From positions 32,001-96,000 of the forward strand of contig CAWDSK010000006.1 of assembly GCA_963804995.1 (NCBI GenBank): a stretch of DNA of 64,000 bases, in the 5' to 3' direction. Position 1 is the stretch's first letter. Each line of letters starts with the position of its first letter. Source of the DNA: an uncultured Acidobacteriota bacterium. Lineage in GTDB: Bacteria > Acidobacteriota > Terriglobia > UBA7540. Below, piece after piece: positions 1 through 18,955 of this stretch. The notes under the pieces are model-generated. The model made no database searches, was not told the DNA's origin, and worked only from the letters and a program-made list of their open reading frames with translations. The translations under genes and the position numbers were made by a program.

Positions 1-1906
1 CAAGGAGAAGGTCCAACGGTTCTAGTTCTAACTTTTCGCCGGCAGCAGTGCGCACCGGAATGCCTGATTCTTGCCAGAGGAAATTCGGGGCCTCAAGGTC
101 GTCAGTAAAGGCACGAGCGTATGCTGTGCCACAGTTGCGGCAAGTAAAGAACTCTAGGATTCGGGTTCCGCAATCGCATCGTTCACGTGGCTGAGCATAC
201 ATTTTTCCGGCTGGTCCGCCCCGTAGACCTTGTGGCAGTGCAGAACAATTTGGATCCATGCACACCCACAGCCCGGGCAGGCCTCGGTAAAACGAATGTA
301 CTCGGCATGGAAGAAGCCCGGGCTCATCCGGAGACTTTTTTGCCAAACTTCCCAGGGCCATCAGCGCCGTAGTCGCGCGGTCGGCGATCGTATTATCGAC
401 GCCAGGAAATATTAGAGCGGCCAGCCCCTCCAGGGGCTGCGCTTGTTGCATTGTTAGATTTACTATTAAATTCATTGGGGAGAAGCCGACGAGTGCGTTG
501 TAGACCGTCTTGGAGAGGTCCAATGCACGTGCTTCTTGGCGGTAGTCGAGAAATGGCTGGATCGCATTCAGACGCATCACTTCCGATTCGGCGTAGAAGT
601 GATCGAAATCTATAGAGGCCAGCGCTTCGGCATCCGCTCCAGTGCCCACAGATGCAGGTGAACGAAGGGCGAGGTCCCCTGTGATAGGGACGAATGAATG
701 CGGGGTCTTTCCAGTGAGTTCCGCGCCGAACTGAGGCGCGTATGTGTAGTCACTGAAACTTGCACTCGTGCAGATAACCTGTATTCTTTCGGGCGGAATT
801 CCCAGCCGCACCCGCAGCCGTCGAATGAGCAGCGCGACCTCGGCTCCTGCCGCTCCTCGGTACAGGTGCGCCTCATCGAGTACAAGTAGAAAGTTCTCCT
901 TGGGATGATCATGTAGCCACCGCCGAGTCTCGTCAAAAATCGGGCGCTCAAGAGGACGCATCAGCATATATTCAAGCATCGAATAGTTGGTTACTATCAG
1001 ATCTGGAGGCGCTTGCTGCACTTCGTGCCGAGTCAAGAGTTCGGGATCATCAGCCAGGGTTACGCAGCGCTTAAATTCTCCATTCTTGTCCTGCCACCGT
1101 GAGCCGAGCCTTCCGAACCATGCGACCAAATCGGGCTTTGCAGGCCATTTCCCGCGTTTCTGCAATTCTTCGACGAGACTTTTCGAGACTTCACGTCGTG
1201 GGGAATTTGGATCTAATGAATTCAAAATATGACGAACGTAGTAAGCACCGATCGATGATAAACGCTCCTGGTCTTTCTTTGGGTCACGGACTCCCGGGTA
1301 AAGGGTCCTGCTCGTATACCGCGCGAAGCGTGCAGGGCGACCAGCCCATGTTTTGAACCGCAGGGTCAGGCGCTTATCACCGAACAACAACCTCAAACGC
1401 CCGAGCTGATCATTAACGAGTGCGTTCATCGGATACAAGATCATCGCCCTGACCGCAGCGTAATCCCGAAAAGAGCTAGGGTTCGCTGTCGCTTCCCTGG
1501 CAAGCTTGCCCAGTATTGGCAGCAGGAAACTCTCTGTTTTTCCTGACCCGGTTCCGGTCATTATCATGAGGCTTTTTCCTTTAACGAGAGATTGGTAGAT
1601 AGCCTCCGTCTGATGATGATATGGCGGGTCATAGACCAGTTGCCTTCCTTGCTCATTAGGGCTGCTTAGTGTTTCAAAAAGTCCGGCAATGTGGGGTTCG
1701 AGATTTTCGATGTCTCTAAATCTACATCCTGGTTTGTAGCGCGGGGTGCTCTCGATGTAAGGACGCTGATATATGACACCGAGGTCGTCAAGCAGTCTGC
1801 GCCGCTGGGCAATCAAGCCGGGATCACCAATGTGATACGTGGCCTCAATATACTCACGCAAAGAGCGCTGTAATTCGTTGATCGTTTCGTTGATTGTCGC
1901 TGGCAT
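1..1906 (-). CDS. druE: Large SF2 DEAH-box helicase, DruE-like (5' part only; runs off the window)
   Basis: Not in the ORF track because no stop lies in the window. Hand translation from ATG 1906 gives MPATINETINELQRSLREYIEATYHI..., Walker A TGTGSGKTESFLLP, motif Ia YPMNALVNDQ, TNYSMLEYMLMRP and motif II LDEAHLYRG. The DruE label is inferred from these motifs plus gene context. Confidence 0.8.
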   Translation of the reverse strand, partial: MPATINETINELQRSLREYIEATYHIGDPGLIAQRRRLLDDLGVIYQRPYIESTPRYKPGCRFRDIENLEPHIAGLFETLSSPNEQGRQLVYDPPYHHQTEAIYQSLVKGKSLMIMTGTGSGKTESFLLPILGKLAREATANPSSFRDYAAVRAMILYPMNALVNDQLGRLRLLFGDKRLTLRFKTWAGRPARFARYTSRTLYPGVRDPKKDQERLSSIGAYYVRHILNSLDPNSPRREVSKSLVEELQKRGKWPAKPDLVAWFGRLGSRWQDKNGEFKRCVTLADDPELLTRHEVQQAPPDLIVTNYSMLEYMLMRPLERPIFDETRRWLHDHPKENFLLVLDEAHLYRGAAGAEVALLIRRLRVRLGIPPERIQVICTSASFSDYTYAPQFGAELTGKTPHSFVPITGDLALRSPASVGTGADAEALASIDFDHFYAESEVMRLNAIQPFLDYRQEARALDLSKTVYNALVGFSPMNLIVNLTMQQAQPLEGLAALIFPGVDNTIADRATTALMALGSLAKKSPDEPGLLPCRVHSFYRGLPGLWVCMDPNCSALPQGLRGGPAGKMYAQPRERCDCGTRILEFFTCRNCGTAYARAFTDDLEAPNFLWQESGIPVRTAAGEKLELEPLDLLL

Positions 1907-1907
1907 G

Positions 1908-2984
1908 TTATCTCCCACTCCCGTCCTGCCGAACCATCCACATTCGTTCTTGAGCGAAATTAATTTCCGTGTCGAGTTGCGTCATGTCGAATGCATATGA
2001 GAACAAACAACCGGTGCTTACGACGGACCTACCGACGAAATCCCACCTCCGGCGAGCCCACAATGGCACAGGAGAGAAGAAATCGAGAAGCCTTTCGTTT
2101 GGGCGGGCGCCGTCACGCACTCGGAAAATCTGAGGTGTGCCTCTCATTGAATCTATTGCCTGCTGTAAGTGGAAGGCCTCATCGCAAGCTCTCCATTTGT
2201 GCTCATATATCGGCAAATCAAGTAGCTTTTCGAGCGCCCCGCCTTGGATTGAGACATAGCACCATAAATCGGCCCCGAATGGCTGCGGTCGCCTCGCGAC
2301 GAATAATCCGGTCTGAGTCTTTAGCGGTATCCACCTGGCCCGGTAGAATCGGACGGAGCGTTTGGGATCAAGCAAAATCATTTCCGGGATGGCCCCAGAA
2401 ATGCCCGCGAGGGCAAGTTTCTGGTCGTACTTTGCTACGTGGTTTCCTGCGGGGGCACACGATGGTAATCTCAACCACGCCTCTGGTTGCACCTCCAAAA
2501 GACCGAGATCCAAAAGGCGAGAGCGCGTCTTGATGTCCGCGTTGTGGATGGCCACTCGATAGTTTTCAAACGTTAATGTGACATCAATTTCCACGTCAAT
2601 TGGAAATCTTCCGTCGGGGTAGATACCGAATAGCAGCACTGTTGATTCAGACAGATATACGAAGCTCGGTGGAGCGGCGTACAACAGTTGAGCAGAGGTC
2701 TGAGAGGCAATATCCCTAGATTCAATAAAATCTCCGTAGGCCAGCAGCGAATCCAACATGTCCTCAATGTTGTCTCCGAGCTCCTCCGGGTCAAGATCGA
2801 AGCCTTCGAATGCCCCTGTGACTGTCCGAATAAGTTGGGAAGGTGGACAAGGGCAGAGGAAGGCTCCTGCTCTCCTCAAAAGAGCCGCAATGGCTTCGGG
2901 GGCAGTCATGTTGATGAGGTCGGATTCGAAACCGAGATCCGAGGCGGCAATTGACTGCACGGCTTCCACACTGATTTGCTGCAT
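1908..2984 (-). CDS. Hypothetical protein (~358 aa), Druantia accessory-like (DruG/DruD position)
   Basis: ORF 1908..3164; likely start at ATG 2984 (MQQISVE), 8 bp after the upstream stop. Ends 1 bp before the helicase start. No recognisable domain. Confidence 0.65.
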   Translation of the reverse strand: MQQISVEAVQSIAASDLGFESDLINMTAPEAIAALLRRAGAFLCPCPPSQLIRTVTGAFEGFDLDPEELGDNIEDMLDSLLAYGDFIESRDIASQTSAQLLYAAPPSFVYLSESTVLLFGIYPDGRFPIDVEIDVTLTFENYRVAIHNADIKTRSRLLDLGLLEVQPEAWLRLPSCAPAGNHVAKYDQKLALAGISGAIPEMILLDPKRSVRFYRARWIPLKTQTGLFVARRPQPFGADLWCYVSIQGGALEKLLDLPIYEHKWRACDEAFHLQQAIDSMRGTPQIFRVRDGARPNERLLDFFSPVPLWARRRWDFVGRSVVSTGCLFSYAFDMTQLDTEINFAQERMWMVRQDGSGR

Positions 2985-2992
2985 TATGAGCC

Positions 2993-5878
2993 TCAGTGAG
3001 CTACGTTGTCGGTAGACGGCTGCATTAGAGTGACAAACCTTGCCGTCCTCGCCAGGAGACGCTGCCGACGCAGGTAAGTGAGAGCGATGGCAAATTCGTC
3101 GGCAGCCCACAGGCGGACGCCTTCGGTGGCGCCGAAGGAGCGGAGAGCAAACTCCGTGATCCATTGATAGCCACTCATCCCGTGGTCATGTGCAAGCGAG
3201 ATGGCAGGGAGTTCAGCGAATTGGTGCAACGTGCGAACCAACAGCTTCGCTGCGCCATTTATGGATAACCATTTAAAATCGTCAGATTTTGTGGCCAATT
3301 GATTCAGGATATAGTTCTCCCTCGGGCTCGTGGAAATCGTCTCCTTGAACGTCTCAACAAGGTCGCGGTCTTGGTTCAGGGTACGTTCAATTGCGGCCCA
3401 TTTGTCGCCGCAGAGCAAGGCTACAATAGTATTCCTAAGCATACTGAGCACTTGTTCTTTTCGTATTTTTGCGAACAAGTCGCCTGGCAGGCGCGATCTC
3501 GACCACAACTCGAAGACCGCGAATATGTGATCGAGACGGTTCTCAGCGCTCTGCGTTCCAACACATGTACTTCCTAGGCCAAGATCGTTCAGAGAATGAA
3601 TCCGCGGCGGGATAACTACGGAGCATTGGTGGTCGCCAGATTTTCCGAGATACAGGCCGCCGTTTTCGGGAACCTGGAAGCCCGCAAGAAACTGAGGCCC
3701 GTTCAGTATTTCTTCCCGGTCTGGGTGGTCAAAGGACAGATACGACACCGTAATCGGTCGCTCCTCGTCGAGTTGAACGATGCGCAGAAAGTAGGATTGA
3801 TTCTGATGGCGTAATGCCCATCGTAGTGGAACAAACTCTCGCTCACATCGAACTTTCTGCTGACCTAATTCCCTGGTCCGAATATTGAGAACACATGCTG
3901 ATGCCTCGTCATATGCATTCTGCATGTGTTGAGTTTGAACGGCAGTTTTGAACGTGTTGAAAAATGTGTTGGCCGATACCGGTAATTTAATGGGACCAAA
4001 TTTGCGTTCAGCAATTAGAGCGGAGCAGTTCCGATCTCGATACATGAGGAGTTCCACCTCCGCATCATGGCAATCGGGCCCTAGAATCTCCACAACTGCA
4101 CTGCCTTCCCACAACTGCTCCATTGTTGGATTCGCCGGAGTAACAACGAGTTGGAGCGGCGAAGTGAATCCAGTGAGGTGATGTACGGCGCGGGGTGGCC
4201 TCACTTGCAAGTTAAGAGTTCCTATTGTTGCACGTTCCTGCGAGGCGTCGAAAAGGGAGAGCGTATACTTACCTTGGCCGAGTTCGCCAAGGCAAATGAA
4301 CATCGGATTCCTAATTTCACTCTGAGGAATAACCATCTCCGCTGGCTGTGGTCCTGAGAGACTCAGGACTAGGCCGGCTAAGGGAAAGTCAATCGCGATC
4401 CCTATACAGGGCCGGTCAGTATTCAGCCATTCGCAGGCACCCTCTCCGTCCCATACGGGAGGGACCAAACCGGCTGGCCAGACTCGAACTGCCCTAGCTG
4501 TGGTCAGTCCCAGTTCTCTAATTTTCTGTGAATAAGACTTGGAAATAGTTTCGGGCAGCGAAGTGCGAATCGCATGGATTCCAACGCATACCAATGTTAC
4601 GGGCGTGGCTCCTATGCCAGTTCCACAGAGAGGATCAGCACTCAGGACGACGTAGTCATTGCCCGGTCGTAAGATTTTGGTCAAATGTTCGACGGCTGAA
4701 CCGTCACTTGCACAGCGAAACACCCACGTTGGTCCCGGACGCAGCAAACACTCTGTGTGAAGCAGGCAATCAAGTTCTGGCACAGAATCGTCGAATTTCA
4801 AGAGCACTTGGCCTGTTTTTGGCCACCGAACAAGCGAAACCTCTTGTTCTGAAAATAGTACTCTGCCTCGGGCGAGCGGGCGGGGATCCCGCGCTCCAGC
4901 AACCGAGCAGCGCTGGCCAACGAGAATTTCCTTGAAGTTCGGAAACTTGGAGAGGAGGGGAGACAAGTTTGAAATTCGTAGCCGAACATCCCACGATCCA
5001 TTGGGGAGAGGGCGCAAAATGATTCTGGGTTCGATCCCGATTTCTCGCAATTCCCGTTTCGTACTGTTTTCATCTTCATCAGTTTGGCAACTCTCGCTTT
5101 TCTCGTCGAGTTCACCTACTGGCGCGCTGCCTTTTCGCAGCCCCGTCAGCCGAACCGCTGTAGCGTGCTGTCGAGCATCGCTCAACCATTCGCGCGACCT
5201 ACGCTCTAAATCCAAATCGGTCGCGATGCGTCGGCGCGTAGTCGGAAGGATCAGGCTGCTTGATTCTTCATTTTCGTTTAGCAGCAGAGAGGAGGCGATT
5301 TGTCCGACCAGGAGATGTTGTTCTGCGAGGTTTTGGAATCTCGAACTAGTCCTCCAACTGTAGGCCTCGATCCGTTCACCTAACATTTGCGGCGAACTTA
5401 GAAGTTCAGCATCAAAATAACCTCGGATGTCGTATAGAACTTCTGCGAGTTGCCGTTGAAGGTCTTTGGGAATAATGGCGTGCGTTATTGGCCAGGAGAT
5501 GATTGAAAAATGTTCAGCCCAACGGCCGTAGGGTTTTGCACCACCGAACCCCCGGTGAAACTTGCGAAAGGCCTCTCTAATCCAGTCACGATCCCCATGC
5601 ATTGACCAGCCGGGTGTACGGTCCGAAAAGGTCTGCCAGTATTCATCGCCGGAGAAGTCATACCCGATTTCGGTGGCGTAAACTACCCAGGCCAGCCAGT
5701 GGCGGTCCGACGGGCCAGTCTGCGCTATGTGATATTTTATGGCTTGTGAAAGAGCGTCGCGGTCAGATTCATTCATCCCATGCTCTAGGGCAAACAGAGC
5801 ACGCCTATTGCGATCAGGCTGCCGCTGCAGGGTCGCGAAATGCTGTTCGAGATTGACTTGCCATTCATTTAGTGTCAT
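2993..5878 (-). CDS. Large hypothetical protein (~961 aa), Druantia accessory-like (DruF/DruH position)
   Basis: 975-aa ORF; likely start ATG 5878 (MTLNEWQ). N-terminal FALEHG...EIGYDFSGDEYWQTF block. Operonic with the downstream ORF and the helicase. Confidence 0.65.
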   Translation of the reverse strand: MTLNEWQVNLEQHFATLQRQPDRNRRALFALEHGMNESDRDALSQAIKYHIAQTGPSDRHWLAWVVYATEIGYDFSGDEYWQTFSDRTPGWSMHGDRDWIREAFRKFHRGFGGAKPYGRWAEHFSIISWPITHAIIPKDLQRQLAEVLYDIRGYFDAELLSSPQMLGERIEAYSWRTSSRFQNLAEQHLLVGQIASSLLLNENEESSSLILPTTRRRIATDLDLERRSREWLSDARQHATAVRLTGLRKGSAPVGELDEKSESCQTDEDENSTKRELREIGIEPRIILRPLPNGSWDVRLRISNLSPLLSKFPNFKEILVGQRCSVAGARDPRPLARGRVLFSEQEVSLVRWPKTGQVLLKFDDSVPELDCLLHTECLLRPGPTWVFRCASDGSAVEHLTKILRPGNDYVVLSADPLCGTGIGATPVTLVCVGIHAIRTSLPETISKSYSQKIRELGLTTARAVRVWPAGLVPPVWDGEGACEWLNTDRPCIGIAIDFPLAGLVLSLSGPQPAEMVIPQSEIRNPMFICLGELGQGKYTLSLFDASQERATIGTLNLQVRPPRAVHHLTGFTSPLQLVVTPANPTMEQLWEGSAVVEILGPDCHDAEVELLMYRDRNCSALIAERKFGPIKLPVSANTFFNTFKTAVQTQHMQNAYDEASACVLNIRTRELGQQKVRCEREFVPLRWALRHQNQSYFLRIVQLDEERPITVSYLSFDHPDREEILNGPQFLAGFQVPENGGLYLGKSGDHQCSVVIPPRIHSLNDLGLGSTCVGTQSAENRLDHIFAVFELWSRSRLPGDLFAKIRKEQVLSMLRNTIVALLCGDKWAAIERTLNQDRDLVETFKETISTSPRENYILNQLATKSDDFKWLSINGAAKLLVRTLHQFAELPAISLAHDHGMSGYQWITEFALRSFGATEGVRLWAADEFAIALTYLRRQRLLARTARFVTLMQPSTDNVAH

Positions 5879-6586
5879 CTGTGGAATCAAGCCTTTGAGA
5901 TGACCGAGCCATTGCCCCACTACTGTTGCAAGAGTCTACACCACAGCCGGGACCAGTGAAATCGGATTTCTAGGGCTACAGTGCTGCTTGGCAAATGTGT
6001 TTGACCGATCGGTCGGGTGGGGTTGTGCTGCCCAAAGCTGTTTTCGCCCGCAACCCAAAGGGCCCGGGCGTTACACTTGTCTGCCTCTCCGCGCCAGCCA
6101 ATTCCGCGTCACCATTTGGCTCTGCGAATTTCTCGAGGCTTCATTCCCTTTGATTTGTCCGCGCGTGAATAAGGCGGCCAGCGGAGGAAACAAAATGATT
6201 GGGCTGGTGCATTCTCTCTGGACACGGCATTTGGGTTTCGGTCACGCAAACTACGGGCGATAATTATCTTGTTTCTGTCATGAGGTGCGCAGTGTGCCTG
6301 TAGTGAGGTATAGGTGGCGCGTGGACTCGCGAGCCGTAGCTGAATCACTGCAGACGATTCGGAAGAGAGACACTCCCACCAGCCTCGCCTGAAAGCAATC
6401 GGGAAGAGGCTGAAGTAAAGCTTGTCACCCTGCTACGCGGCACGTTGCCAATTCTCGTCATTGCATTGCTCGCCATCTACTTTGAGCAGGTCAGGAAGGT
6501 AAGGAAGTCGCCGAAGTCGTGCAAGGGCTCGCATAAACCGGTTTCGGACCGAGAAAGGAACTCCGCCTGGCGACACTGAATGAGAG

Positions 6587-8569
6587 TTACTCCTCCGTAC
6601 ACGACGGCAAGATGACGCGGGCCCCATGCTCTAGAGGGTAATTGACCGAGTGCTTCTCAACTTCAGGCAATGTGTCTTCTCTCAGAATCCTTTTGGAAAG
6701 CCACCTCTTTATCCAATAATCACCAATTTTTCGAGTTACTTCCCTTGGATTTGACCTGCCGTATATGAAATTGGCCCGCTTCGCTACCCCCAATAAAACC
6801 TCTCGAAAATTTGAGGCGAGGCTTATGCCATAAATTATTCGCGCGTTCCCGTGCATTAACAGCGAATCGGACGGCAGTCCAACAAGGGCGAGCCCGTCAC
6901 GGATCTTTCGAAACCTCGGATTAACGCCCTCGCCGAAGATACTGTTGACCCTGCGGCCCCCCTCACTCCTTGCCAACAGCACTTCGATTTCGTCTACGGT
7001 CGTCGGCGAAAGGTGATTCGAGCCGAACCCGAGCGACCGGCCCAACAATTCGTATTGCACTCCCGTTGCGGGCTTTCCGCCGACCTCTTCCGCAGGTATC
7101 CTCAAACGGTTGTATTGGCTGGAAGCGACGCCGTACAAACTTGTGGTCCCAAGTAGGACGAGTTGCGGCGTACGAAGGGCTGGTTTTCCGGCCATGGAGG
7201 AAGCAATAATGCTGGGAGTATTCCCATACCGCCGTTCGTACGCTACCGCAACCTCTGGGCTCGTAACGAGCATGGCGACCAGCTTTCCTCCGAGGAGAGG
7301 GTTATATGGAGCCACTGCGCCGCAAACCATGATATCTAGCATGTCGATGCCGATGTGACTGGCCTTCATATGCCGGATGATCACCTGGATGCCCCTTCGT
7401 CCTGGACTTGTCTTCAGTGCTAGGCCGAGAGTGTGTTTCGTGGGGGACTTGAATCCGGCTTCAAGTAAATTGAGTCTTGCTGCGAGGAGTTCGGCTAAGA
7501 CTTTTGCCCGCTTCGCCCTGAATAAGTACGATCGGGCTTCCTGCTCCCAGTCCTGTGTTGACTTCTTGTGTTGGCTTGACTTAGGGAATTTCCTATGCCA
7601 CTGACGAGCTAAGACGGCTTCCCTTAGTAGGGTGTCGACGATCTTTGGCGATGGGCTAAGCAGGTCTCTGCGCCTGACAATTTGTTCCTCTAGAAAGTCA
7701 TTGATATACACTGCCTTGACAAGTCGACTCCATGACTGCCAAATCCACTCCGCCCACCGTTTGGTCGGTTTTTGTTCGAGGCTCTCGATAAATCTGGCCG
7801 GCGTCCACCCTATCCAATTATCGCGCGGCGTCAATTGCACCACAGCACTCCCGAGTGCAGCGATGCCGATGATCGGATGGTTTTCGGCGGCCGCGTCCCG
7901 GACCAGAAGGCAGACTTGTCGTCCGGGCACGCTGTGGTATGGAATGACCCACGTATGTCTGAAGTACCGCCAAATATCGGCTAACCTGAGGCCAGTGAAT
8001 TCACAGGTTGCGCCTCGCTCGACGACTTGAATGTAAGGATCAATGCAGGCTCGAAGTGACTCCAGCCTCTTGGCTTCGTTCTCGCAATGGTCTATGGCCC
8101 GGAGTTTAGCGCTTAAGTCGGGTCCATCGCGCACAAGGGATAGGACCGACACCCAGCCGTTTGCTCCGACCCGTTTTGTCTCCATGCTTCGGATGAATTG
8201 CCGTGTGGCTGGAAGACAAAGCTGTGAGTCTCGTTCGAAAAGGTGGGCCTCCCGCACGCGTTGCTTCTCTAACGAAAACGAACTTGAGTCCGCTTCTGGG
8301 GGACAGCCCCAAAGCTGGGGCCCCTCCACGCGGAAAGTCCACCCTTGAACCCGAAGGTCGCAAAGAACTGAGACGCAGACCCGGAGTTCGTGGTTGCACT
8401 TGCCGGCTTCCTCTGCGGCTCTGAAGGCAGTTGTGCGAAGGGCCGCCGTTTCATTTCTGTCCGCGATCTTCCCTAGCTTTCGCGCAAACTCGAGCAGAAG
8501 GGCCCTTGCCTTGCCGTCGGAAAGGAGATTGGGCTTAAGTGGAACACAGTCTTTGTGCTGCTCGCTCAA
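6587..8569 (-). CDS. druA: DUF4338 / Druantia DruA-family protein
   Basis: 660 aa, TTG start with GGGAG RBS. Motifs WRYFRHTW..PY...PGR, HPIIGIAALGS, CGAVAPYNPLLGGKLVAML and TTSLYG..SSQYNRL are typical of DruA. Confidence 0.75.
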   Translation of the reverse strand: MSEQHKDCVPLKPNLLSDGKARALLLEFARKLGKIADRNETAALRTTAFRAAEEAGKCNHELRVCVSVLCDLRVQGWTFRVEGPQLWGCPPEADSSSFSLEKQRVREAHLFERDSQLCLPATRQFIRSMETKRVGANGWVSVLSLVRDGPDLSAKLRAIDHCENEAKRLESLRACIDPYIQVVERGATCEFTGLRLADIWRYFRHTWVIPYHSVPGRQVCLLVRDAAAENHPIIGIAALGSAVVQLTPRDNWIGWTPARFIESLEQKPTKRWAEWIWQSWSRLVKAVYINDFLEEQIVRRRDLLSPSPKIVDTLLREAVLARQWHRKFPKSSQHKKSTQDWEQEARSYLFRAKRAKVLAELLAARLNLLEAGFKSPTKHTLGLALKTSPGRRGIQVIIRHMKASHIGIDMLDIMVCGAVAPYNPLLGGKLVAMLVTSPEVAVAYERRYGNTPSIIASSMAGKPALRTPQLVLLGTTSLYGVASSQYNRLRIPAEEVGGKPATGVQYELLGRSLGFGSNHLSPTTVDEIEVLLARSEGGRRVNSIFGEGVNPRFRKIRDGLALVGLPSDSLLMHGNARIIYGISLASNFREVLLGVAKRANFIYGRSNPREVTRKIGDYWIKRWLSKRILREDTLPEVEKHSVNYPLEHGARVILPSCTEE

Positions 8570-8571
8570 CG

Positions 8572-10086
8572 CTAGCTCCCGAGAAAGGCCGCCAGAATAT
8601 TACTCCAAGCTATGCGCTTTCGGTTGTACCAATATCGTTGCTGGGGATTGACCGCTTCTGCCTCGGCTCTTGCCAGCGAAAAAAGAAGGCAATCGATGCT
8701 TACTCGCAATTCCCTGGAACCCTCTCCGCAGAGTGGGGCATAGACACGGTCGAAAAAAGGATGGTTACGGTTAAGGACCAACACGAGGGCGCCACGCTGG
8801 CGCTTCAAGGAATAAAAGGCCTCTTCGCGTAAGGGAAGAATAGATAGAGCGTATTTGGGGTTTCGATCCGTGCCTCTAGAAAGGGAAGAGAGCATCGGAG
8901 GATGCCGCCCTCCTGCCTTCTCTGGAATCGGGGGAAGGTATTTATCCCTTTGAGAGAGAATCTGAGCCGCGGGAGTCTTGGGGCGATCGTTTACCTTCGA
9001 ATATGCACGCCGGACGCGCGAATTCAGCGTGTGTGCGATGGCTTCGAGGTCTGCAGTTAGAATAGCTTCCAATTCGGGGCTCGGGTGAATAGCCTGCTTC
9101 GTGTAAGTCGGCCGGAAGTACTCGTCCAACTCCGCTCCGAAGGCTATCTCACATCGCCACCAATCGTCATAGTTTTCTCTTCGCTTCTTTCCCATGAAAT
9201 GCCAACCGTAACTGACCTCGCGACCTGCCCTTACAAGGGATGCGCCAGCGCCTTTGACAATGCCGTACCGGCGCTTGTCCTCAACAGGCAGATCGTGCCA
9301 ATCGGCGACTGGGAGTTCCGAAAAACGAACACAAATAGCTGAATTCCTCCCTGGATTGCCTGGCAGCCGGAACTTGTACGTGAGGGGCTTGGCGTAGATC
9401 TTGGCGCCGGTGAGGGGCGTGTCATGGTGGCAGAAGAGGGGATCAACGGGGACCACTCGTGTCCCGTTGATTGAGATCTCGACCCCGGCCCAGATTGAGT
9501 ATCGAAATATCCTTCCGATTTGGTTGCGCAGCTTTTCCCCTGAGACCGAGGTTGGCGTCTTTTCCAGCCTGTCGCATTTCCGCCAAACGACTAACGTGCC
9601 TGTTGCGCCTGAATAGGCTCGTGCCCATCCGGGCAATTTGGCGCTTCGGGGAGGCGGGATCTCCCGCATGGTGCCGTCGGCGATTTCGTCTACATCCAAA
9701 TACGAGTAGAGCGTACCGCCAGATCTTCTCCACGTGTAGATTTCCAGCCTGCGGGCTTGACTCAGTGAACTGGAGGGTAATCCCATGCCAAAGCGACCGG
9801 GGCCTGTCCGGTCATTGAATCGCGTTGTGCCCCCGAACTGTAAGGCCGCCCTGAGAGTGCGGTCGTCCATTCCGCAACCGTTGTCTAGGGCTGCAACCGT
9901 GACGCCGTGGTCCTTTTGAGATGTATCTTCTGTTGTAATGAAGACGCGCACTTTACTTGATTTGGCCTGAATGGAATTGTCCAAAAGTTCTGCAATTGCA
10001 TATGCTGGCCCTCCGTACCCGACCTCTCTAATTGCCAAGATAAAGTTCTGATCAGCCACGATGGAGAAGTCCCGTTGCAGTCCCAT
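8572..10086 (-). CDS. GHKL (HATPase_c_3 / MORC-like) ATPase
   Basis: N box AIAELLDNSIQA, G1 DNGCGM, G2 GRFGMGL, G3 GTLV. Its stop is 2 bp from the druA start; AAGGA RBS. Confidence 0.85.
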   Translation of the reverse strand: MGLQRDFSIVADQNFILAIREVGYGGPAYAIAELLDNSIQAKSSKVRVFITTEDTSQKDHGVTVAALDNGCGMDDRTLRAALQFGGTTRFNDRTGPGRFGMGLPSSSLSQARRLEIYTWRRSGGTLYSYLDVDEIADGTMREIPPPRSAKLPGWARAYSGATGTLVVWRKCDRLEKTPTSVSGEKLRNQIGRIFRYSIWAGVEISINGTRVVPVDPLFCHHDTPLTGAKIYAKPLTYKFRLPGNPGRNSAICVRFSELPVADWHDLPVEDKRRYGIVKGAGASLVRAGREVSYGWHFMGKKRRENYDDWWRCEIAFGAELDEYFRPTYTKQAIHPSPELEAILTADLEAIAHTLNSRVRRAYSKVNDRPKTPAAQILSQRDKYLPPIPEKAGGRHPPMLSSLSRGTDRNPKYALSILPLREEAFYSLKRQRGALVLVLNRNHPFFDRVYAPLCGEGSRELRVSIDCLLFSLARAEAEAVNPQQRYWYNRKRIAWSNILAAFLGS

Positions 10087-10124
10087 TTGCGTTTCCTTTC
10101 TTTGCCTAGTTCAATTCCATTAAG

Positions 10125-10153
10125 ATTTAATAATCGTACGCACGATTTGTCAA
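10125..10153 (-). promoter_or_regulatory. Sigma70-type promoter with palindromic operator in the spacer
   Basis: TTGACA (10153-10148)-N17-TTAAAT. The spacer holds a perfect AATCGT-N4-ACGATT palindrome (10132-10147). Confidence 0.55.
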
Positions 10154-10193
10154 GGAAGAACTTTCCCCGGACTGCACGTACACCTCGACGCGA

Positions 10194-10412
10194 TTAGTTG
10201 AGAGATTGGGCCGCCGTGGGCTTAACATACCCGCAGGGGCAGCGTCCCGTGCTAGGCGAAAATCGGTGCGAACGGTAAAGTGGGCATCGAGGGTAGAGCC
10301 GGGGTTGTCCACCAGTATGCGGAACAAGATTGGCTCGTTCAGGCCTTGGGATCTTTGCCCACCGTTTGCGTGCAAGCTTGGAGGCGTGAATGTCTTTGCG
10401 TTTCTTGGTCAT
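10194..10412 (-). CDS. Small basic protein with Cys/His cluster (possible Zn-binding regulator)
   Basis: 72 aa, Lys/Arg-rich N-terminus, C-terminal CPLYRSH...CPC. TACAAT lies shortly upstream of the ATG. Confidence 0.45.
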   Translation of the reverse strand: MTKKRKDIHASKLARKRWAKIPRPERANLVPHTGGQPRLYPRCPLYRSHRFSPSTGRCPCGYVKPTAAQSLN

Positions 10413-10720
10413 TCGAAGGCGAGATTGTACGATATCCTTGGACTAGCTGCATACAGCTTTCTACTTTCTGCAATTCGTGCCCGACCGAGACTTGTGCCGT
10501 CGCCCAATCCTACTACCAGTAATTCCAAACATATTCTGGTAACTTCACTGTTCTCTGCTCACATGGGCACCCGTTGGGCTGACCCGAAGACAGCATAAAG
10601 AATGGTCATGCATATATGCAAATTCAGGCCGTCTCAGAGGGGGCTTAGCCCAACCTAGGGAGACGTTCTCGCGCAGCCAGCCTGGCATAATAATTCTCAC
10701 GAGGGTTCGAACTCCAAGCA

Positions 10721-10906
10721 CTACGGACCGCACCGTTGCACCGCGCACATGGTGCAAACAATTGCAGATGGATTGTAGCGCACATTTCGAGGATATCCGC
10801 GCTGAAGCTGCATCGTTCCCAGGCGCCCGACCTGAATACGGGCATTGCTCGCACAGGAAAGAATCAACGCATATGTTCCGGGTTTTGGCTCAATGATAAT
10901 TCCCAT
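10721..10906 (-). pseudogene. Truncated DUF123/GIY-YIG (Uri-like) endonuclease fragment
   Basis: MGIIIEPKPGTYALILSCASNARIQVGRLGTMQLQRGY resembles the DUF123 N-terminus. Similarity is lost before the expected YVGSA motif. Confidence 0.5.
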
Positions 10907-10981
10907 CGATGTCCTATTCTGGACTGGCAGCATCTCGCTCCGACTCTGCTAAAATACCTCGCAAGGAACATTGACAACCAC

Positions 10982-11197
10982 ATGGCCGACTGGAAAGTCA
11001 TCGCGCTGATCAGCGGTAATATCGAAGCCGTTTCAGGCCCGGTTGCTCATGACCGACCGGGAAGGCACGAACGAACTGTCTGGGAAGGGGAAGCCGCTGA
11101 CAAAGCCGAAGCCCTTCAAAATGCCGAGAAAGCCGACCCCAGGGTTGATCTGGAGTGGATGCGCATTCGCCACGAGCGGGACCTAGACGTAAGGTAG
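10982..11197 (+). CDS. Hypothetical protein (71 aa)
   Basis: MADWKVIALISGN... is the protein-like 3' part of ORF 10736..11197. Confidence 0.4.
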   Translation: MADWKVIALISGNIEAVSGPVAHDRPGRHERTVWEGEAADKAEALQNAEKADPRVDLEWMRIRHERDLDVR

Positions 11198-11429
11198 GAT
11201 AGCGCTTAGCCCCTTTCAGCGGCACCCGAAATAGGCCCCCCCAACTCTTTCCTCACTACCTTAGATTTACCTACTCATGCCCCTTTTCTGGTGCTCCTTC
11301 TTCTCGCGGGCACGGCGAGATGGGGACTGCTTGCGCTCGCGGCACGGCGGGCGTCTGTTTTGTCGCCGCGGCGACACCCTCCCCACCGGATGAGACGACC
11401 TGGCAAAAGCATCCCCCACTGTCAGCCCT

Positions 11430-12945: not shown

Positions 12946-13321
12946 GCGCTTGGAGGAGAAGAGCAATCGATATTTTCGGTTCCTCAGAGCCTGGTGGAGG
13001 CTCAAGAGCGTCGAAGGTTTCAGTACGATAGCTGAACGGATCAGGCGGGCGGGGCGAATGAGGAGAGCACACAAACCTGCGACGAGGCGATCGGAAGTGA
13101 GTAGATGGGGGGACCGCTGCCGCGAACGATTGAGGATCAGGAGTTGTTGCTTGACAAGAACGGACTCGGCGACCACAGAACGGATGCCGCCCGGACCCAA
13201 GAGTCGGGCAAGAGTAGCCATGACATGGACGAAAAGGATGACGAGATTGCGCATCTCAGCATGTTAGCAAGAACGGCTAACCCCAGGAATTGTGCCCTAA
13301 ACTAGCAATTCGCCAGGGACA
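12945..13321 (-). mobile_element. Truncated IS: left end plus the N-terminus of an integrase-core (rve) transposase
   Basis: ORF from 13254 reads MRNLVILFVH...LVKQQLLILNRSRQRSPHLLTSDRL...VLKPSTLLSLH. Putative TG-starting end TGTCCCTGGCGAATT at 13321. No DDE domain is present. Confidence 0.65.
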
Positions 13322-14196
13322 GCCGGCACAAAGCGTTGGCTGACTCCGGCGATGATCAGCGCCCCAAAGCCCAGCAACTGGATATCCCGAAGCGGGCCGT
13401 CAATCAGCGCGATGCGCATCACCAGTTGGTCCACGCCGGCGGTCGTCACCTTGGCAAAAAAGAGAATGTCACTCACGATGGCCTGGAAGAAAAACCAGAA
13501 GAACGCGCCGAAAATGAACTTCTCATAAATCTGGTGCGGCTCCACGGATTGCTGCGCGGTCTTGAGGATAATGAGGATGAACAGGGTGATGGCAGCAAGC
13601 TCGGTACCCGCCGCCAGAATTCCCAGGCCCACTCCCACTGGCATCGGCTGGAGCATTTCCGCGGCCACGCGCGAGGCGATGCCGATCAGCATCAAGTACA
13701 ACGTCAGGTTGGCTAGGTCGGCGCGCCACAACGAAACGTATTTGAAGCGCGGGAACGATTGGTACGCGAAGCCCATCACGAACAGCCCCATCCAGCCGAA
13801 AATCATGGCGTGCGCGTGCGCCTGAATGGCGGGCACAAGGCGAACTTGCAGGAAAGTGCCCCCCAGGGCAATCTGCAAAAGATTGATCGCGCCCCACAAA
13901 GCGCCCACGGAAAGGACGATGGCGATTCCCGCCTTGAAGAATCGCCGGTAGATGAAATCCCCCAACGATCCCTGGTAAACGTACTCTTTGCTGCTGGGGT
14001 TCCGCATTTCGGCGTTCAATTCCCGCACCAACGCGTCGACGTCAACGTTGTGGACCGCGGCAAAAAACGCCAGCGCCTCGGTGGGGCCGTGCTCGCCGCC
14101 GCATCCTTTTAGCCCGTATTTATCAAAAACGCGCCGCGCCGTGGGGCAAGCTTTGACGATGTCGGCGACGCTCGTGAGTTTGGTGAATTCCGTCAT
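13297..14196 (-). pseudogene. ScdA_N/DUF1858 + NnrS-like membrane protein, 3'-truncated by the IS
   Basis: N-terminal VFDKYGLKGCGG domain, AHAHAMIFGWMGLFVMGFAYQSFPRF and multiple TM helices. The last codons (VPGELLV*) are read from the IS end. Confidence 0.65.
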
Positions 14197-14303
14197 GACG
14201 ATTCCTCCATTCGATGCCGTCCCGGTGGGGACGATTTCTCAGGCCGCGACGCTCTGCGCAAGAAGTGGGCGGCAGTTGGCAACGTGCTTCGTACCAGGAG
14301 GTC

Positions 14304-14513
14304 TTATGGGTTAGGAACTGCCGCCCCGGCCACGGCCGCGTTCAACTCTGCCAGAATCGCTTCCAGATCGAATCCATGCTTACCAGCGGCATAAGCGAGT
14401 GAATGAACTCCGCCACAGTGCAAATTCAGGTTATAGCTCCTGAAAACTCTCATTGTCTCCGGCCAGGTCCTGACGATATCTCCTACCTTCATGTCGGGCG
14501 TGATCGCTGCCAT
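14304..14513 (-). CDS. Small ScdA_N/DUF542-like protein (RIC N-terminal domain)
   Basis: MAAITPDMKVGDIVRTWPETMRVFRSYNLNLHCGGVHSL...LNAA; GAGGAG RBS. Confidence 0.7.
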   Translation of the reverse strand: MAAITPDMKVGDIVRTWPETMRVFRSYNLNLHCGGVHSLAYAAGKHGFDLEAILAELNAAVAGAAVPNP

Positions 14514-14573
14514 GGTTGCGTCTCCTCTCTCGATCGTGCGGTTACAGCGTAGAGCAGCGGGGAAATGGGGGCG

Positions 14574-14587
14574 ATGACTTCTGTCAC
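14574..14587. promoter_or_regulatory. Crp/Fnr-type box 1
   Basis: ATGAC-TTCT-GTCAC. A TACGCT -10 element on the minus strand (14551-14546) sits at class II (-41.5) spacing. Confidence 0.6.
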
Positions 14588-14702
14588 AGGGCATTCGGCC
14601 GTCGAAGGTTGAAGGTCGAATGCGCGGGTCATGACCCATCCCTGGCCTCAACTCTCACCTTTCAACCTTTATCTTTCGACTTTTGACTCCCCGCCCCCTT
14701 CT

Positions 14703-14716
14703 GTGACTTCTGTCAT
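14703..14716. promoter_or_regulatory. Crp/Fnr-type box 2
   Basis: GTGAC-TTCT-GTCAT upstream of the radical SAM gene. Confidence 0.55.
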
Positions 14717-14762
14717 CGCCAGGGGGCCGGTACTGTAGTGAAATGGGTGGCGAGGTGGAGCA

Positions 14763-15923
14763 ATGCGTGAGACAGCCGAAAACGAGCCCCAGGTGGATTT
14801 CAACGAGCGGCCTTTTATCGCGATCTGGGAGGCGACCCAGGCGTGCGACCTGGCGTGCGTGCATTGCCGGGCCAGCGCGCAACCCCTGCGGTCTTCGTTT
14901 GAACTGTCCCCGGCAGAAGCCAAGCGGCTGATCGATCAGATTGCCGAGATGCGGGTTCCAGTGTTCGTCATCACCGGCGGCGACCCGCTGAAGCGGCCCG
15001 ATATTTTCGACCTGGTGGAATATGCCACCGCGCGCGGATTGCGGACGTCCCTGACTCCCAGCGCCACACCCCTTCTGACGCGCGAGGCGATTGCCGAGCT
15101 TCAGCGGCGCGGACTGGCGCGCTTGGCCGTGAGCCTGGACGGCTCATCGGCGGACATTCATGACGCTTTCCGGCGCGTCCCGGGCTCGTATGAGTGGACG
15201 CTACGCGCCATCCGCTGGGCACGCGAACTTGCCTTGCCCGCACAGATCAACACCACCATTACACGTCGCAATCTGGCGGATTTTGATGACATGGTGCGGC
15301 TGCTGCAAACGCTCGATATCGCCATGTGGAGCGTCTTCTTTCTGGTCCCCACCGGACGCGGCCAACTGGACGACCTGATTTCTGCTGAGGAGTTCGAAGC
15401 GGTCTTCGCCAAGCTTTATCAAGTTGCACGGCGCGCGCGATTCGACATCAAGACCACCGAGGCGCAACACTATCGCCGCTATATTCTCCAGACGCGCGCG
15501 GCAGAACGGAGATGCCAAGAGCCGGCGACCGTCGCCAACGCCAAGGCCGCACCCACGCAAGCAACGTGGAATGAAATCGCGGTGAAAAACTCCCCCGATG
15601 GCATTGGCCGGGCGCCCCGTGGGTTGAACGATGCCAAGGGTTTCGTCTTCATCTCGCACTTCGGCGAGGTCTTTCCCAGCGGCTTCCTGCCTATGTCTGC
15701 GGGCAATGTGCGCCGGCAACCGCTGGCGGAGATTTACCAACACTCACCGCTGTTTGTTGCCTTGCGCGACACCTCTCGCCTGCAAGGGAAGTGCGGCGCC
15801 TGCGAGTTCCGCAACGTGTGCGGCGGCTCGCGCGCCCGCGCCTTTGCCCTCACCGGCGATCCCTTTGCCGAAGAGCCTTGCTGTGGGTATGAACCGAAAG
15901 CCGCGGCAGTTTACTCCCATTAG
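14763..15923 (+). CDS. Radical SAM/SPASM protein (TIGR04053-like, NirJ/AhbD-related)
   Basis: WEATQACDLACVHCRA (CX3CX2C), TGGDPL, C-terminal CGACEFRNVCGGSRARA...C SPASM domain. Confidence 0.85.
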   Translation: MRETAENEPQVDFNERPFIAIWEATQACDLACVHCRASAQPLRSSFELSPAEAKRLIDQIAEMRVPVFVITGGDPLKRPDIFDLVEYATARGLRTSLTPSATPLLTREAIAELQRRGLARLAVSLDGSSADIHDAFRRVPGSYEWTLRAIRWARELALPAQINTTITRRNLADFDDMVRLLQTLDIAMWSVFFLVPTGRGQLDDLISAEEFEAVFAKLYQVARRARFDIKTTEAQHYRRYILQTRAAERRCQEPATVANAKAAPTQATWNEIAVKNSPDGIGRAPRGLNDAKGFVFISHFGEVFPSGFLPMSAGNVRRQPLAEIYQHSPLFVALRDTSRLQGKCGACEFRNVCGGSRARAFALTGDPFAEEPCCGYEPKAAAVYSH

Positions 15924-16008
15924 TGCCGGGGGTTAGCGTGGATTTCTCACCACGCTGGGATTTTAAAGGGCTTCAGCGCGGTGATCATTCCGGTAAGAGA
16001 ATACACCT

Positions 16009-18297
16009 CTACACCGGAGGAGCCATGTCCCGCTTCCACACGCTGCGCAGCGCGCCGAGCGCGATAGGTACAGCACCGACGAGGATGAAGATCATGTCTC
16101 CCGCCATGCGAACCCATTCCAGCTTGTGGTAGAGGCCGCCCATCAGGAAGGTCAGCCGACGCGCGTGCCAGTACCCCTTGGCGATGGAGTCCCAGAGTTG
16201 GAGGACGCCTCCGGGAAACAGGTCCAAGAGGACCATAAGGGCGAGGCCCACGTTAGCACCCCAGAAGCCTATCTGGATGAACTTCTCTGTCCCCTTCCAG
16301 ACGGCGTCGGACTGCATGGCTCTCAAGCAAAATACCAGGACCGCCAGCGCCAACATCCCGAAGACGCCAAACAGGGCGGCGTGTGCGTGGTTGGCGGTGA
16401 GTGTCGTGCCCACCTCGAAGTAAGACACAATTGGCAGGTTGATAAGGAAGCCGAAAACCCCGGCGCCGACAAAGTTCCACACACCGACCGCCATCAGGAA
16501 GTAGATGGCCCACTTCTGGCTGGTCGCGAATTCCTGGCCGCACACGGAGCACTGCCGATTCTTCAGCTTGATGAAGTCCCAGGCGTCCAGGGTCAGAAGC
16601 GTCAAGGGCACAATCTCCATGGCGGAGAAGCACGCCGCCAGGCCCATGTTGAGCGTCCCCTGGCCGGTGAAATACCAGTGATGGCCTGTGCCAATGATCC
16701 CGGCGCTGAGGTAGAGGATGGCGTCGAGGTAGATCAGGCGCGTGGCGGTCTTGGTGCTGACCACGCCCATCTGGTGGAACATGATGGCCACCAGGACCGT
16801 GGCGAAGAGCTCGAAGAATCCTTCCACCCAAAGATGGATGATCCAGAAACGCCAGTTATCGATGACCGCGAAGTTGGTGTGGGGGCCGTAGAAAAGCGCG
16901 GGCAGGTAAAAGACGGGAATGGCCACGGCAGCGTAAAGAAAGAGTGCGGATAACTCACGCTTGCCAGGACTCTTCATGGCAGGCTTCAAGGCTCGGAACA
17001 TCAAAAAGAGCCAGAAGACAAGGCCCGCCGCCAGCAGGAGCTGCCAGAACCGCCCGAGGTCCAGGTATTCTGAACCCTGATGCCCGAACCAGAACCATAC
17101 CTGCCCGAGCTTGTCGTTGATGCCCAAATACTCTCCGAAGAGGCTGCCGAAAACCACTACAACTAACGCCCCGAGGAGAACGTAGACGCCAGCCCTTTGG
17201 CCTTTGGGCTCCTCGCCACCCACCCAGGGCGCCAGGAAAAGGCCGCCGCCTACCCAGGCCGTTGCGATCCAGAAGATGGCGAGTTGGAGGTGCCAGGTGC
17301 GTGCCAGAGTGTAGGGCAGGAAGTGCGCGATGTTGAAGCCGTAAAAGCCTCCGGGCTCCACGCGGTAGTGGGCGAGTGCGCCTCCCAGGAACGATTGCGC
17401 CAGGAAGAGGAGCGCCACCACGGCAAAGAACCACCCGGTGGCCCATTGGCTGGGCGTCAGGATCAGAGGCGTGGGAGCGGAGTGCGTAACGTGGGCGACA
17501 TCGCCCTCACCCTTCCAGCCCAGGTAGTCAAACTTGCCGACGACGAAGAGGATCAGGCCCAGACCTCCCAGAAGGGTGATGAGACTCAAAGCGCTCCAGA
17601 CGTAAGCCTCAACGGAGGGCCGGTTGCCTACCAGGGGCTCATAAGGCCAGTTATTCGTGTAGGTATAGTCCTTGCCTGGCCGGTTCGCCGACGCCGCCCA
17701 GGCGGCCCACGCGAAAAAGGCGGTCAGCGCTTGGAGCTCCGTGGGGTCCTTGATATAGCGTGCAGGCAGTCCAGGGGCGGCGCCCTGCTTGGTGAAGTAG
17801 TCGCTCCATTCGGCCGTCTGGCTGCGAAAGGCTGCCACCTCCCCGGGGGTAAAGAAGAGCGTTCGCGAGGCCGATTCGTACCGGTTCTCCTTAAGAACCC
17901 TCCGCACCTCCCCGGACGCGACGATCTGCTCATCAGTCGAGAGCTGTGCGAAGGGTTTGCCGTACTTATCCACCGCGATCGTATCCCGAGTCACTTCGCT
18001 GAGCCGGTGCAGATACTCGGCGCTGTAGTCAGGACCCAGATAAGCCCCGTGACCCCAAAGGGTCCCGTGTTCCATGAGGCCGTATTTAAAGAAGACCTCC
18101 TGGCCTTTTTGGATATCGGCTCCTGTGAATACTACATTTCCCGCCGCATCCACGGCCTTGTCGGGAATGGGAGGGGCGTTCGTGTAGGTCAAGACGGTTA
18201 CGAAAGATAGAACCGAGAAACCACCGATCATGACGAGAATCGCCGCATGTCGCCACCACGGAGAGAGACCTGTAGCACTACCGGACGTGTCTGCCAT
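16009..18297 (-). CDS. norB: Quinol-dependent nitric oxide reductase (qNor)
   Basis: 762 aa; GTLWGHGAYLGPDY, RTWHLQ, HLWVEGFFE, GTGHHWYF and HAHAALFG motifs. Confidence 0.95.
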   Translation of the reverse strand: MADTSGSATGLSPWWRHAAILVMIGGFSVLSFVTVLTYTNAPPIPDKAVDAAGNVVFTGADIQKGQEVFFKYGLMEHGTLWGHGAYLGPDYSAEYLHRLSEVTRDTIAVDKYGKPFAQLSTDEQIVASGEVRRVLKENRYESASRTLFFTPGEVAAFRSQTAEWSDYFTKQGAAPGLPARYIKDPTELQALTAFFAWAAWAASANRPGKDYTYTNNWPYEPLVGNRPSVEAYVWSALSLITLLGGLGLILFVVGKFDYLGWKGEGDVAHVTHSAPTPLILTPSQWATGWFFAVVALLFLAQSFLGGALAHYRVEPGGFYGFNIAHFLPYTLARTWHLQLAIFWIATAWVGGGLFLAPWVGGEEPKGQRAGVYVLLGALVVVVFGSLFGEYLGINDKLGQVWFWFGHQGSEYLDLGRFWQLLLAAGLVFWLFLMFRALKPAMKSPGKRELSALFLYAAVAIPVFYLPALFYGPHTNFAVIDNWRFWIIHLWVEGFFELFATVLVAIMFHQMGVVSTKTATRLIYLDAILYLSAGIIGTGHHWYFTGQGTLNMGLAACFSAMEIVPLTLLTLDAWDFIKLKNRQCSVCGQEFATSQKWAIYFLMAVGVWNFVGAGVFGFLINLPIVSYFEVGTTLTANHAHAALFGVFGMLALAVLVFCLRAMQSDAVWKGTEKFIQIGFWGANVGLALMVLLDLFPGGVLQLWDSIAKGYWHARRLTFLMGGLYHKLEWVRMAGDMIFILVGAVPIALGALRSVWKRDMAPPV

Positions 18298-18379
18298 TCA
18301 TGCCCCCATTGCGGGCCATGTCGATGCCTTATGGCCACGCTTGATTTATTGATGTTAGGGGAGCAACGGGCACATGACG

Positions 18380-18393
18380 ATGACTTTTGTCAC
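18380..18393. promoter_or_regulatory. Crp/Fnr-type box 3 upstream of norB
   Basis: ATGAC-TTTT-GTCAC. A TAACAT -10 element (18357-18352, minus strand) sits at class II spacing. Confidence 0.65.
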
Positions 18394-18955
18394 GGCCCTT
18401 ACAATACGACCCGCAAGACCTTGAGAGGAACTTGGGGATCAGCGAGACAGAGCGCCTGAAAATCCTGCTTGATCACAAAAAGCACGGTGACGCCGTCGAC
18501 CGCGGCTGCTGACGCGGGTACTTCGCCGGATTGGGAACGAAAAACGCCCTTTCATGCTCGAATCCCACTTGCCTGAGTCCCACTGAAGACATCGGACTCT
18601 TCGGTCGCCTGGTACAGTCTTCCCAAGCGTGTTGACGGACATGATAGTAATGTTCCCGCTTAGGCGAACTGTGGCGGTGTTAGCCGTGTCAAATGGCGGC
18701 TGTGCCCGACGGCGCACAGGAGAAGAATTCACTGTTACCGTGAGATCACAAGTCGTCCCTCTAATTTACTACCGCGGCTGGCGCATACAGAAGAAGTGAA
18801 TGAGCCACCCACGAATTTGACGTGTTGGCGTGCTATCGGGAACAATCTAATCTACGATAGGCGGTGCAGTGGATAGTCGCGATCGGAAAAAGGCTGTCTA
18901 TGTCAGATCGGATTAAGAGATGACCCATGACGAGCGACAAGATAGGGATAACTGA

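Follow-up and report, generated by a model that had tools for sequence, protein, structure and literature searches.

A type I-derived Druantia cassette headed by a MORC-like GHKL ATPase and a long DruA in an uncultured Acidobacteriota bacterium

Why does a GHKL ATPase stand at the head of a Druantia defense locus, and with which of its genes does it belong? The question is raised by a 64,000-nucleotide stretch of DNA from an uncultured Acidobacteriota bacterium (assembly GCA_963804995.1, contig CAWDSK010000006.1), here called the window, which corresponds to G000 C6 32001-96000, G000 being the genome; the loci compared with it carry L-numbers. At the left end of the window, a five-gene cassette lies entirely on the minus strand, in the order GHKL ATPase, long druA, a gene for a 961-amino acid (aa) protein, druD and druE. 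An earlier note on this DNA had described five co-oriented genes in this order, with the ATPase stop 2 bp from the druA TTG, and the coordinates agree; it had also taken the locus for a hybrid of Druantia types I and II in which the ATPase replaces the type II methylase DruM, a reading that did not hold, as set out below.

The ATPase and long DruA as a pair

The ATPase (504 aa; 8572..10086, minus strand; HATPase_c_3, E 4.7e-19) is a predicted partner of the long form of DruA (660 aa; 6587..8569, minus strand; DUF4338, PF14236, E 1.1e-35; PADLOC DruA1 PDLC00001, 583 bits), the TAG codon of the former being separated by two bases from the TTG start of the latter. A profile built from 120 homologues of the ATPase retrieved 540 metagenome relatives, of which the best 80 were kept, some of them near-copies of one another. 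In 66 of these 80 loci, the distance from the ATPase stop to the start of a long druA is -29 to +15 bases, and in the remaining 14 the contig ends first, at most 438 bases downstream, so that the recurrent adjacency to druA expected in the earlier note is borne out. Among 401 Acidobacteriota genomes, all three ATPase matches above 650 bits precede a long druA, and a fourth match, of 246 bits (G084), has no DruA match. The 19 DruA loci on viral contigs comprise six with a long DruA and the ATPase, eight with a long DruA and no ATPase, and five with a short DruA and no ATPase, and the six long-form plasmid loci examined, of 11 found, carry a more distant ATPase (three loci) or FtsK-like genes (three loci). 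No ATPase accompanies DruA among the short-DruA loci seen; short DruA without the ATPase heads the type I loci L012, L013, L017, L020, L129 and L138. A long DruA, conversely, does not always come with the ATPase. When two ATPase-free long-DruA loci were scanned, the FtsK-like gene matched SspH and, in one of them, the preceding genes matched SspF and SspG. Long DruA without the ATPase, in some cases of about 1190 aa, was further seen at the head of SspF/SspG/SspH-like (DndFGH-type) genes in L006, L010, L011, L016 and L118-L123, the hosts being haloarchaea, Hymenobacter and prophage-like contigs.

The two proteins also vary together. Across 20 loci (L014, L073 and L114 were left out), the pairwise identities of ATPase and DruA correlate with a rho of 0.79 (0.63 minus two distant loci), compared with 0.20 (0.13 minus the same two) for ATPase and DruE and 0.19 for DruA and DruE; as the pairs are not independent, these values are descriptive. 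Because its identity tracks that of DruA and not that of DruE, we assign the ATPase to DruA, with which, to judge from these comparisons, it belongs and evolves, and not to the helicase, which argues against the suggestion that it takes the place of DruM.

The long DruA is distinguished by an insertion of 143 residues (265-407) that is absent from short DruA, as mapped against five short sequences. Residues that do not vary between the long and short forms include R201, W207, R217, D225, R249, D250, D412, K429, T475, S477, Y486 and R488. In a DruA tree of 77 rows, which leaves out near-duplicate loci and incomplete long DruA, a fully supported branch sets the short form apart, and the state 'long with ATPase' requires two changes. 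The long form itself is already catalogued, since the DruA1 model of PADLOC has 675 positions. PHROGs returned only an unnamed family for DruA, the Atlas gave nothing usable after PF14236 clusters were skipped, and a GTDB scan with a single DruA sequence found only one near-copy. A match of the DruA C-terminus to ribosomal protein L18 (E 0.006) was treated as due to chance.

As for the ATPase, 119-120 of the 120 homologues conserve E33, D36, N37, D68, G70, G72 and the G-rich lid, the four GHKL ATP-binding motifs of the MORC family are present, and the closest proteins of solved structure are MORC2/3/4 (E 2.7e-12). Only 2 of the 120 homologues match the strict MORC S5 motif, GhXhhpXXRhl, compared with 117 once one position is relaxed; the window protein carries it at 281-291, where the tenth position is E. 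Because the strict motif is missed by one position, we call the protein 'MORC-like'. Its match to MzaB of the MZA system is weak (64 bits against a cut-off of 850). Like the prokaryotic MORC/paraMORC ATPases of restriction-modification (RM) operons (PMC2292703), the cassette ATPase has intact GHKL motifs, MORC proteins as best PDB relatives and a superfamily II (SFII) helicase nearby; unlike in those operons, its fixed partner is a DUF4338 protein and the cassette contains no methylase.

The ATPase-long DruA pair also heads loci of other composition. Well-flanked metagenome loci (8 kb of flank or more) number 36: 26 have DruE-module genes beside the pair, 10 have a second ATPase, two of these together with DruE-module genes, and two have neither. 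In L026, L035, L038, L047, L057, L067, L075 and L100, the pair is accompanied by a second GHKL ATPase and a sigma-70-like gene, with no helicase gene in view. A further subtype headed by the pair (L014, L015, L048, L052, L055, L065, L116, L007 and L009) comprises a distant relative of the 961-aa protein of about 1000-1050 aa, an SNF2 helicase, DruE1 and a convergent NERD-UvrD gene.

A type I-derived cassette with two independent swaps

Downstream of the pair, on the minus strand, lie the genes for the 961-aa protein (2993..5878, ATG at 5878), for the 358-aa DruD (1908..2984, ATG at 2984; PADLOC DruD1 PDLC00010, 346 bits, E 3.9e-104) and for DruE, a YprA-like helicase of the type I clade, of which the window holds the 5' part (1..1906, ATG at 1906) and which runs on to G000 C6 28380. 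The earlier note had staked the Druantia assignment on a DruE match and a DUF1998 domain in the helicase, and both are present: DruE1 scores 1286 bits, compared with 478 for DruE2 and 336 for DruE3 (PADLOC), and MZB/DUF1998 is found beyond the window at G000 C6 ~28,800-29,050 (E 7.9e-14), so that the Druantia signature is there, though in a frame that is broken in G000. Type I Druantia is said to be druABCDE, an arrangement ascribed to Doron et al. 2018. By these profile matches, the cassette is a Druantia locus on account of its DruE and type I-derived, because PADLOC gives DruA1, DruD1 and DruE1; it is not canonical type I, because the DruB and DruC models are unmatched, nor is it type II, III or IV. 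The type II/IV models DruM, DruF, DruG and DruL found no match among the five cassette genes, DruE1 being the best helicase model, and with DruD1 as the match of the 358-aa gene the proposed type I/II hybrid is not supported. The methylase that lies near the cassette is an adenine one, the Mod of a type III RM locus that is distinct from the cassette and beyond its edge.

Among the closest known systems is type I, represented here by P. putida pKF715A (L012), with which the cassette has in common DruA, DruD and a helicase of the DruE1 clade (DUF1998/MZB), encoded on one strand in this order. Unlike L012, the cassette has a DruA of 660 aa with the ATPase 2 bp upstream and the 961-aa protein in place of DruB and DruC, and over their first 900 aa its DruE and the L012 helicase are only 38% identical. 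Nitrosococcus watsonii pNWAT01 (L013) has, in the same order as the cassette, a 955-aa homologue of the 961-aa protein (32% identity), DruD (35%) and DruE (55%), but a short DruA of 410 aa and no ATPase, and NCBI names only its DruA and helicase. With type III (DruH-DruE), the cassette shares one large accessory protein before a YprA-like helicase; unlike in type III, its helicase is DruE1, not DruE3, there are five genes including DruA, DruD and the ATPase, and the 961-aa protein has no DruH match by HMM or in PDB.

The 961-aa protein had no match in Pfam, PADLOC, NCBIfam or PHROGs, and its family comprises 1467 cluster representatives at E<=1e-10. The DruB1 model matched neither this protein at E 10 nor 41 family members at E 0.1 (the DruB of L012 scores 762 bits), the DruC1 model matched neither the protein nor the 41 members, and hhalign to DruC gave E 0.51. 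A plain fusion of DruB and DruC was rejected because neither BLAST nor HMM searches matched either protein; the link to DruB is weak and partial, with residues 285-468 aligned by hhalign at E 0.00075 and a probability of 25% (controls, 0.28-0.96). Further leads are an ESM Atlas value of 0.94 to clusters with YjiT_N in 10-21% of their members, for which the recognition value is below threshold, weak hhalign matches of the N-terminus to DruH (E 0.034-0.041; 0.5-0.9 for reversed and shuffled controls) and a weak match to a PKD Ig-like domain at ~513-561 (E 0.006). The accessible parts of 2026 preprints on type III describe DruH as a YjiT family protein with Ig-like domains. The three leads to the nature of the protein (YjiT_N/DruH, DruB and Ig-like) are thus weak, but they agree with one another.

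The 961-aa gene is a second swap, independent of the replacement of short DruA by the ATPase-long DruA pair, because it is also found with a short DruA and no ATPase on the Nitrosococcus plasmid. Both swaps were seen in all four combinations: short DruA with DruB and DruC (L012, L138), short DruA with the 961-aa family (L013, L017, L020, L129), ATPase-long DruA with DruB/DruC-like genes (L023, L024, L051) and ATPase-long DruA with the 961-aa family (the window locus). The identity of DruE follows the accessory gene and not the head, amounting to 55-64% among the loci with the 961-aa family versus 38-39% to those with DruB/C. The cassette is built from two swappable halves, a head (ATPase and DruA) and a tail (961-aa protein, DruD and DruE1).

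Both halves travel together. Upstream of the ATPase, a minus-strand leader (10087..10471) containing an 82-aa open reading frame (ORF; 10375-10127), for which PADLOC gave no match, ends where the likeness to L005 and L022 does, at a blastn boundary at 10471, and at the other end contigs from peat depart from G000 at C6 28211, just past druE. Because these edges are common to L005, L022 and the peat contigs, the five genes constitute one travelling cassette of 14.3 kb, which does not include the type III RM genes farther out; three same-study sequencing runs with next to no cassette words were left out. The GC content of the cassette is 52-56% versus ~58% for the genome. The gene order of the window recurs in L030, L049, L050 and L117 and, with one extra gene, in L072, L073 and L076, and the head is arranged divergently in L093. 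Between druA and the 961-aa gene lies a non-coding gap of 708 bp (5879..6586), compared with 6-458 bases in most related loci; it recurs in L005 and L022, where the first start codon comes after 665 bp, matched none of the proteins retrieved except copies of the same stretch, and contains no consensus promoter or terminator, the promoter scans having come back empty.

In the literature searched, outside of which lay subscription papers, Doron 2018 and bioRxiv supplements, the ATPase-long DruA pair was described nowhere, as the earlier note had supposed for a Druantia locus with a coupled GHKL/MORC-like ATPase, and the accessible text of PMC12458937 contains none of the terms GHKL, HATPase or Hsp90. 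The pair in a complete helicase operon, the replacement of DruB/C by the 961-aa protein and the two-by-two modularity are new here and apparently unnamed.

What the pair may do

The reading that we prefer, with a probability of roughly 40%, is a defense that marks self DNA and unwinds DNA that lacks the mark. DruA, reportedly a GNAT-fold protein, would write a chemical mark on host adenines; the ATPase, a predicted ATP-gated DNA clamp, would load or license DruA, perhaps via the 143-residue insertion; the 961-aa protein, a predicted DruH-like scaffold or sensor of single-stranded DNA or forks, would do the job of DruB and DruC; and DruE, loading on phage DNA that lacks the mark, would unwind it and so block its replication. 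The idea of a mark is suggested by the PacBio 'm6A' call at CAGCTGNC reported for type I Druantia, with no methylase gene known according to the accessible part of that work (10.1101/2024.04.14.589459), by the description of DUF4338 as a GNAT in the part of PMC10853773 available, and by phage Mu Mom, reported as a GNAT enzyme that modifies adenine N6 in DNA (PMC13219725). It is also suggested by the ATPase-free long DruA proteins at the head of SspF/SspG/SspH-like genes, which correspond to the restriction arm of a different system that marks self. The link of the head to the helicase rests on the DruE-module genes in most of the well-flanked loci and on the shared 14.3-kb unit. For type III, DruE is reported to unwind DNA from overhangs and DruH to bind or trim DNA (10.64898/2026.05.13.724313, 10.64898/2026.05.12.722862, 10.64898/2026.05.12.724681). 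Mom is a functional model only: like DruA, it has a reported GNAT fold (PMC13219725), but DruA is 2-3 times longer, chromosomal and without a significant profile match to it. In Microbacterium phage MenE (L190, 195-928), a Mom-like gene directly adjoins a tRNA-Gly gene, charged tRNA-Gly being the reported donor of Mom (PMC13219725).

Several observations weigh against a mark-and-unwind defense. The ATPase-DruA head does not track DruE in the 20-locus identities; in 8 of the 36 well-flanked loci, the head stands beside a second ATPase, and no helicase gene is visible; and the 708-bp gap weakens the view of a single operon. The DruH link of the 961-aa protein is weak, the Atlas lead included: PADLOC DruH matched none of 41 family members, and the protein did not match the PDB structure of DruH, 9tud. 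A Mom profile aligned with short DruA at E 0.024 over 25 columns and with long DruA at E 0.14, the latter no better than shuffles. The PacBio result stems from a different type I locus, not this cassette (10.1101/2024.04.14.589459), and DUF4338 fused to DndF is read, in the accessible part of PMC10853773, as a suicidal co-effector, not a writer.

That last role could be transferred to the pair as a sensor-effector backup, in which the ATPase restrains a toxic GNAT that, released upon infection or inhibition of the helicase arm, acylates host protein or tRNA and stops growth. We regard this as rather unlikely: the tight coupling and co-variation of ATPase and DruA would suit a toxin and its guard, as would the eight loci in which the pair occurs without a helicase, but the short DruA of the six type I loci listed above manages without the ATPase, so that a guard is not always needed, and type I is reported to modify host DNA (10.1101/2024.04.14.589459). 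The gap after druA, together with the finding that DruE identity follows the accessory gene whatever the head, could instead mean that the mobile cassette carries two separate systems, a self-sufficient ATPase-DruA pair and a DruH-like/DruD/DruE helicase that senses DNA structure as in type III. The head is co-oriented, divergent or convergent relative to the tail, and L133 has the trio of 961-aa gene, druD and druE with other genes directly upstream; against this, on the L133/L114 contig the ATPase-DruA pair follows closely on DruE, some form of DruA adjoins the tail in nearly every locus seen, and the gap between druA and the 961-aa gene shrinks to 8-12 bases in L050 and L072. We regard two systems as improbable. 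The least likely reading, and a quite improbable one, is close to that of the earlier note: the ATPase would serve the entire restriction complex as a structural motor, looping DNA between a recognition site and DruE. DNA looping was proposed for prokaryotic MORC proteins, with an SFII helicase in ~70% of their neighbourhoods (PMC2292703), to which the 26 of 36 loci here compare, but such a motor would not be expected to track DruA in place of DruE or to be missing from every short-DruA locus seen.

Returning to the preferred mark-and-unwind defense, a bolder form of it, which we consider doubtful, would make DruA, as a GNAT, the DNA writer not yet found for type I Druantia: it would mark host adenines with an acyl group of the Mom-like, non-methyl kind, the long form being run by the MORC-like clamp and the module plugging into unrelated restriction arms (DruE with DruB/C or with the DruH-like 961-aa protein, and DndFGH/SspFGH-like genes). 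If true, a DruA writer would represent a new methylase-free class of RM. In one 263-phage screen, type I Druantia reportedly gave the strongest defense of all systems, and it marks host DNA, no methylase being known (10.1101/2024.04.14.589459); the 2026 mechanism papers, as far as they are accessible, concern type III. If the pair marks or guards host DNA for the helicase, as we prefer to read it, the job of DruA would become testable: the natural two-by-two set (short DruA or ATPase-long DruA; DruB and DruC or the 961-aa protein) offers ready-made swap and knockout tests of the role of DruA and allows one to ask if a MORC-like ATPase of prokaryotes governs an enzyme that modifies DNA. Because PADLOC, Pfam, NCBIfam and PHROGs do not recognize the 961-aa family, annotation would report such loci as incomplete.

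The broken druE frame and the surroundings

In G000, two lesions divide the druE frame into three ORFs, each with a DruE1 match: a stop at C6 30459, within helicase motif VI, and one additional base at C6 ~29421. Because DruE reads as broken, either the function of the tail has been lost in this strain or the assembly is wrong. The allele of L005, from a Terriglobia metagenome-assembled genome, is 99.25% identical over 13.9 kb and has neither break; its frame runs on past both positions, for 1772 aa, until the examined stretch ends (1927 bits on DruE1). Among the housekeeping genes of G000, lon (C2) is frameshifted and mfd (C3) apparently so, which suggests scattered single-base insertion errors in the assembly; rpoB, rpoC, gyrA and gyrB read through. 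As contigs from 4 of 4 peat/wetland runs are also without the extra base in druE, this base may be an assembly error. The G000-L005 differences are not all sequencing errors, a possibility rejected by the ratio of 44 synonymous to 38 non-synonymous changes, and the genes have therefore been under selection. As to whether all four damaging differences are TCGA-linked sequencing errors, 7 of 104 differences fall in TCGA, versus 2.7 expected, while RpoB and RpoC, with 24-26 TCGA sites, are intact. Type I DruE is predicted, in the accessible part of PMC12458937, to carry an inactivated nuclease domain.

Left of the window, beyond druE, lies a defense island (G000 C6 9964-27635; L001, L002, L003) that comprises the type III RM genes (BPTD_3080-family Res and a 935-aa Mod), GmrSD/DUF262, AbiEii, a UvrD-like helicase with a weak HigB-like N-terminus and a 1051-aa gene product whose first 372 aa match a PADLOC pAgo model (483 bits) and SIR2-type Aga models. 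On the other side, just outside the cassette edge, a stretch of ~430 bp (window 10790-11220) is repeated at C6 825094-825517 (85% copy) and, in part, at C6 370171 (75% copy), and one of its minus-strand frames resembles a putative broken GIY-YIG/DUF123-type gene. Farther along, at window 13297-20812, clustered ORFs resemble, as judged by eye, those for a radical SAM protein (14763-15923), a nitric-oxide reductase (16009-18297) and a nitroreductase-like protein (18956-20812).

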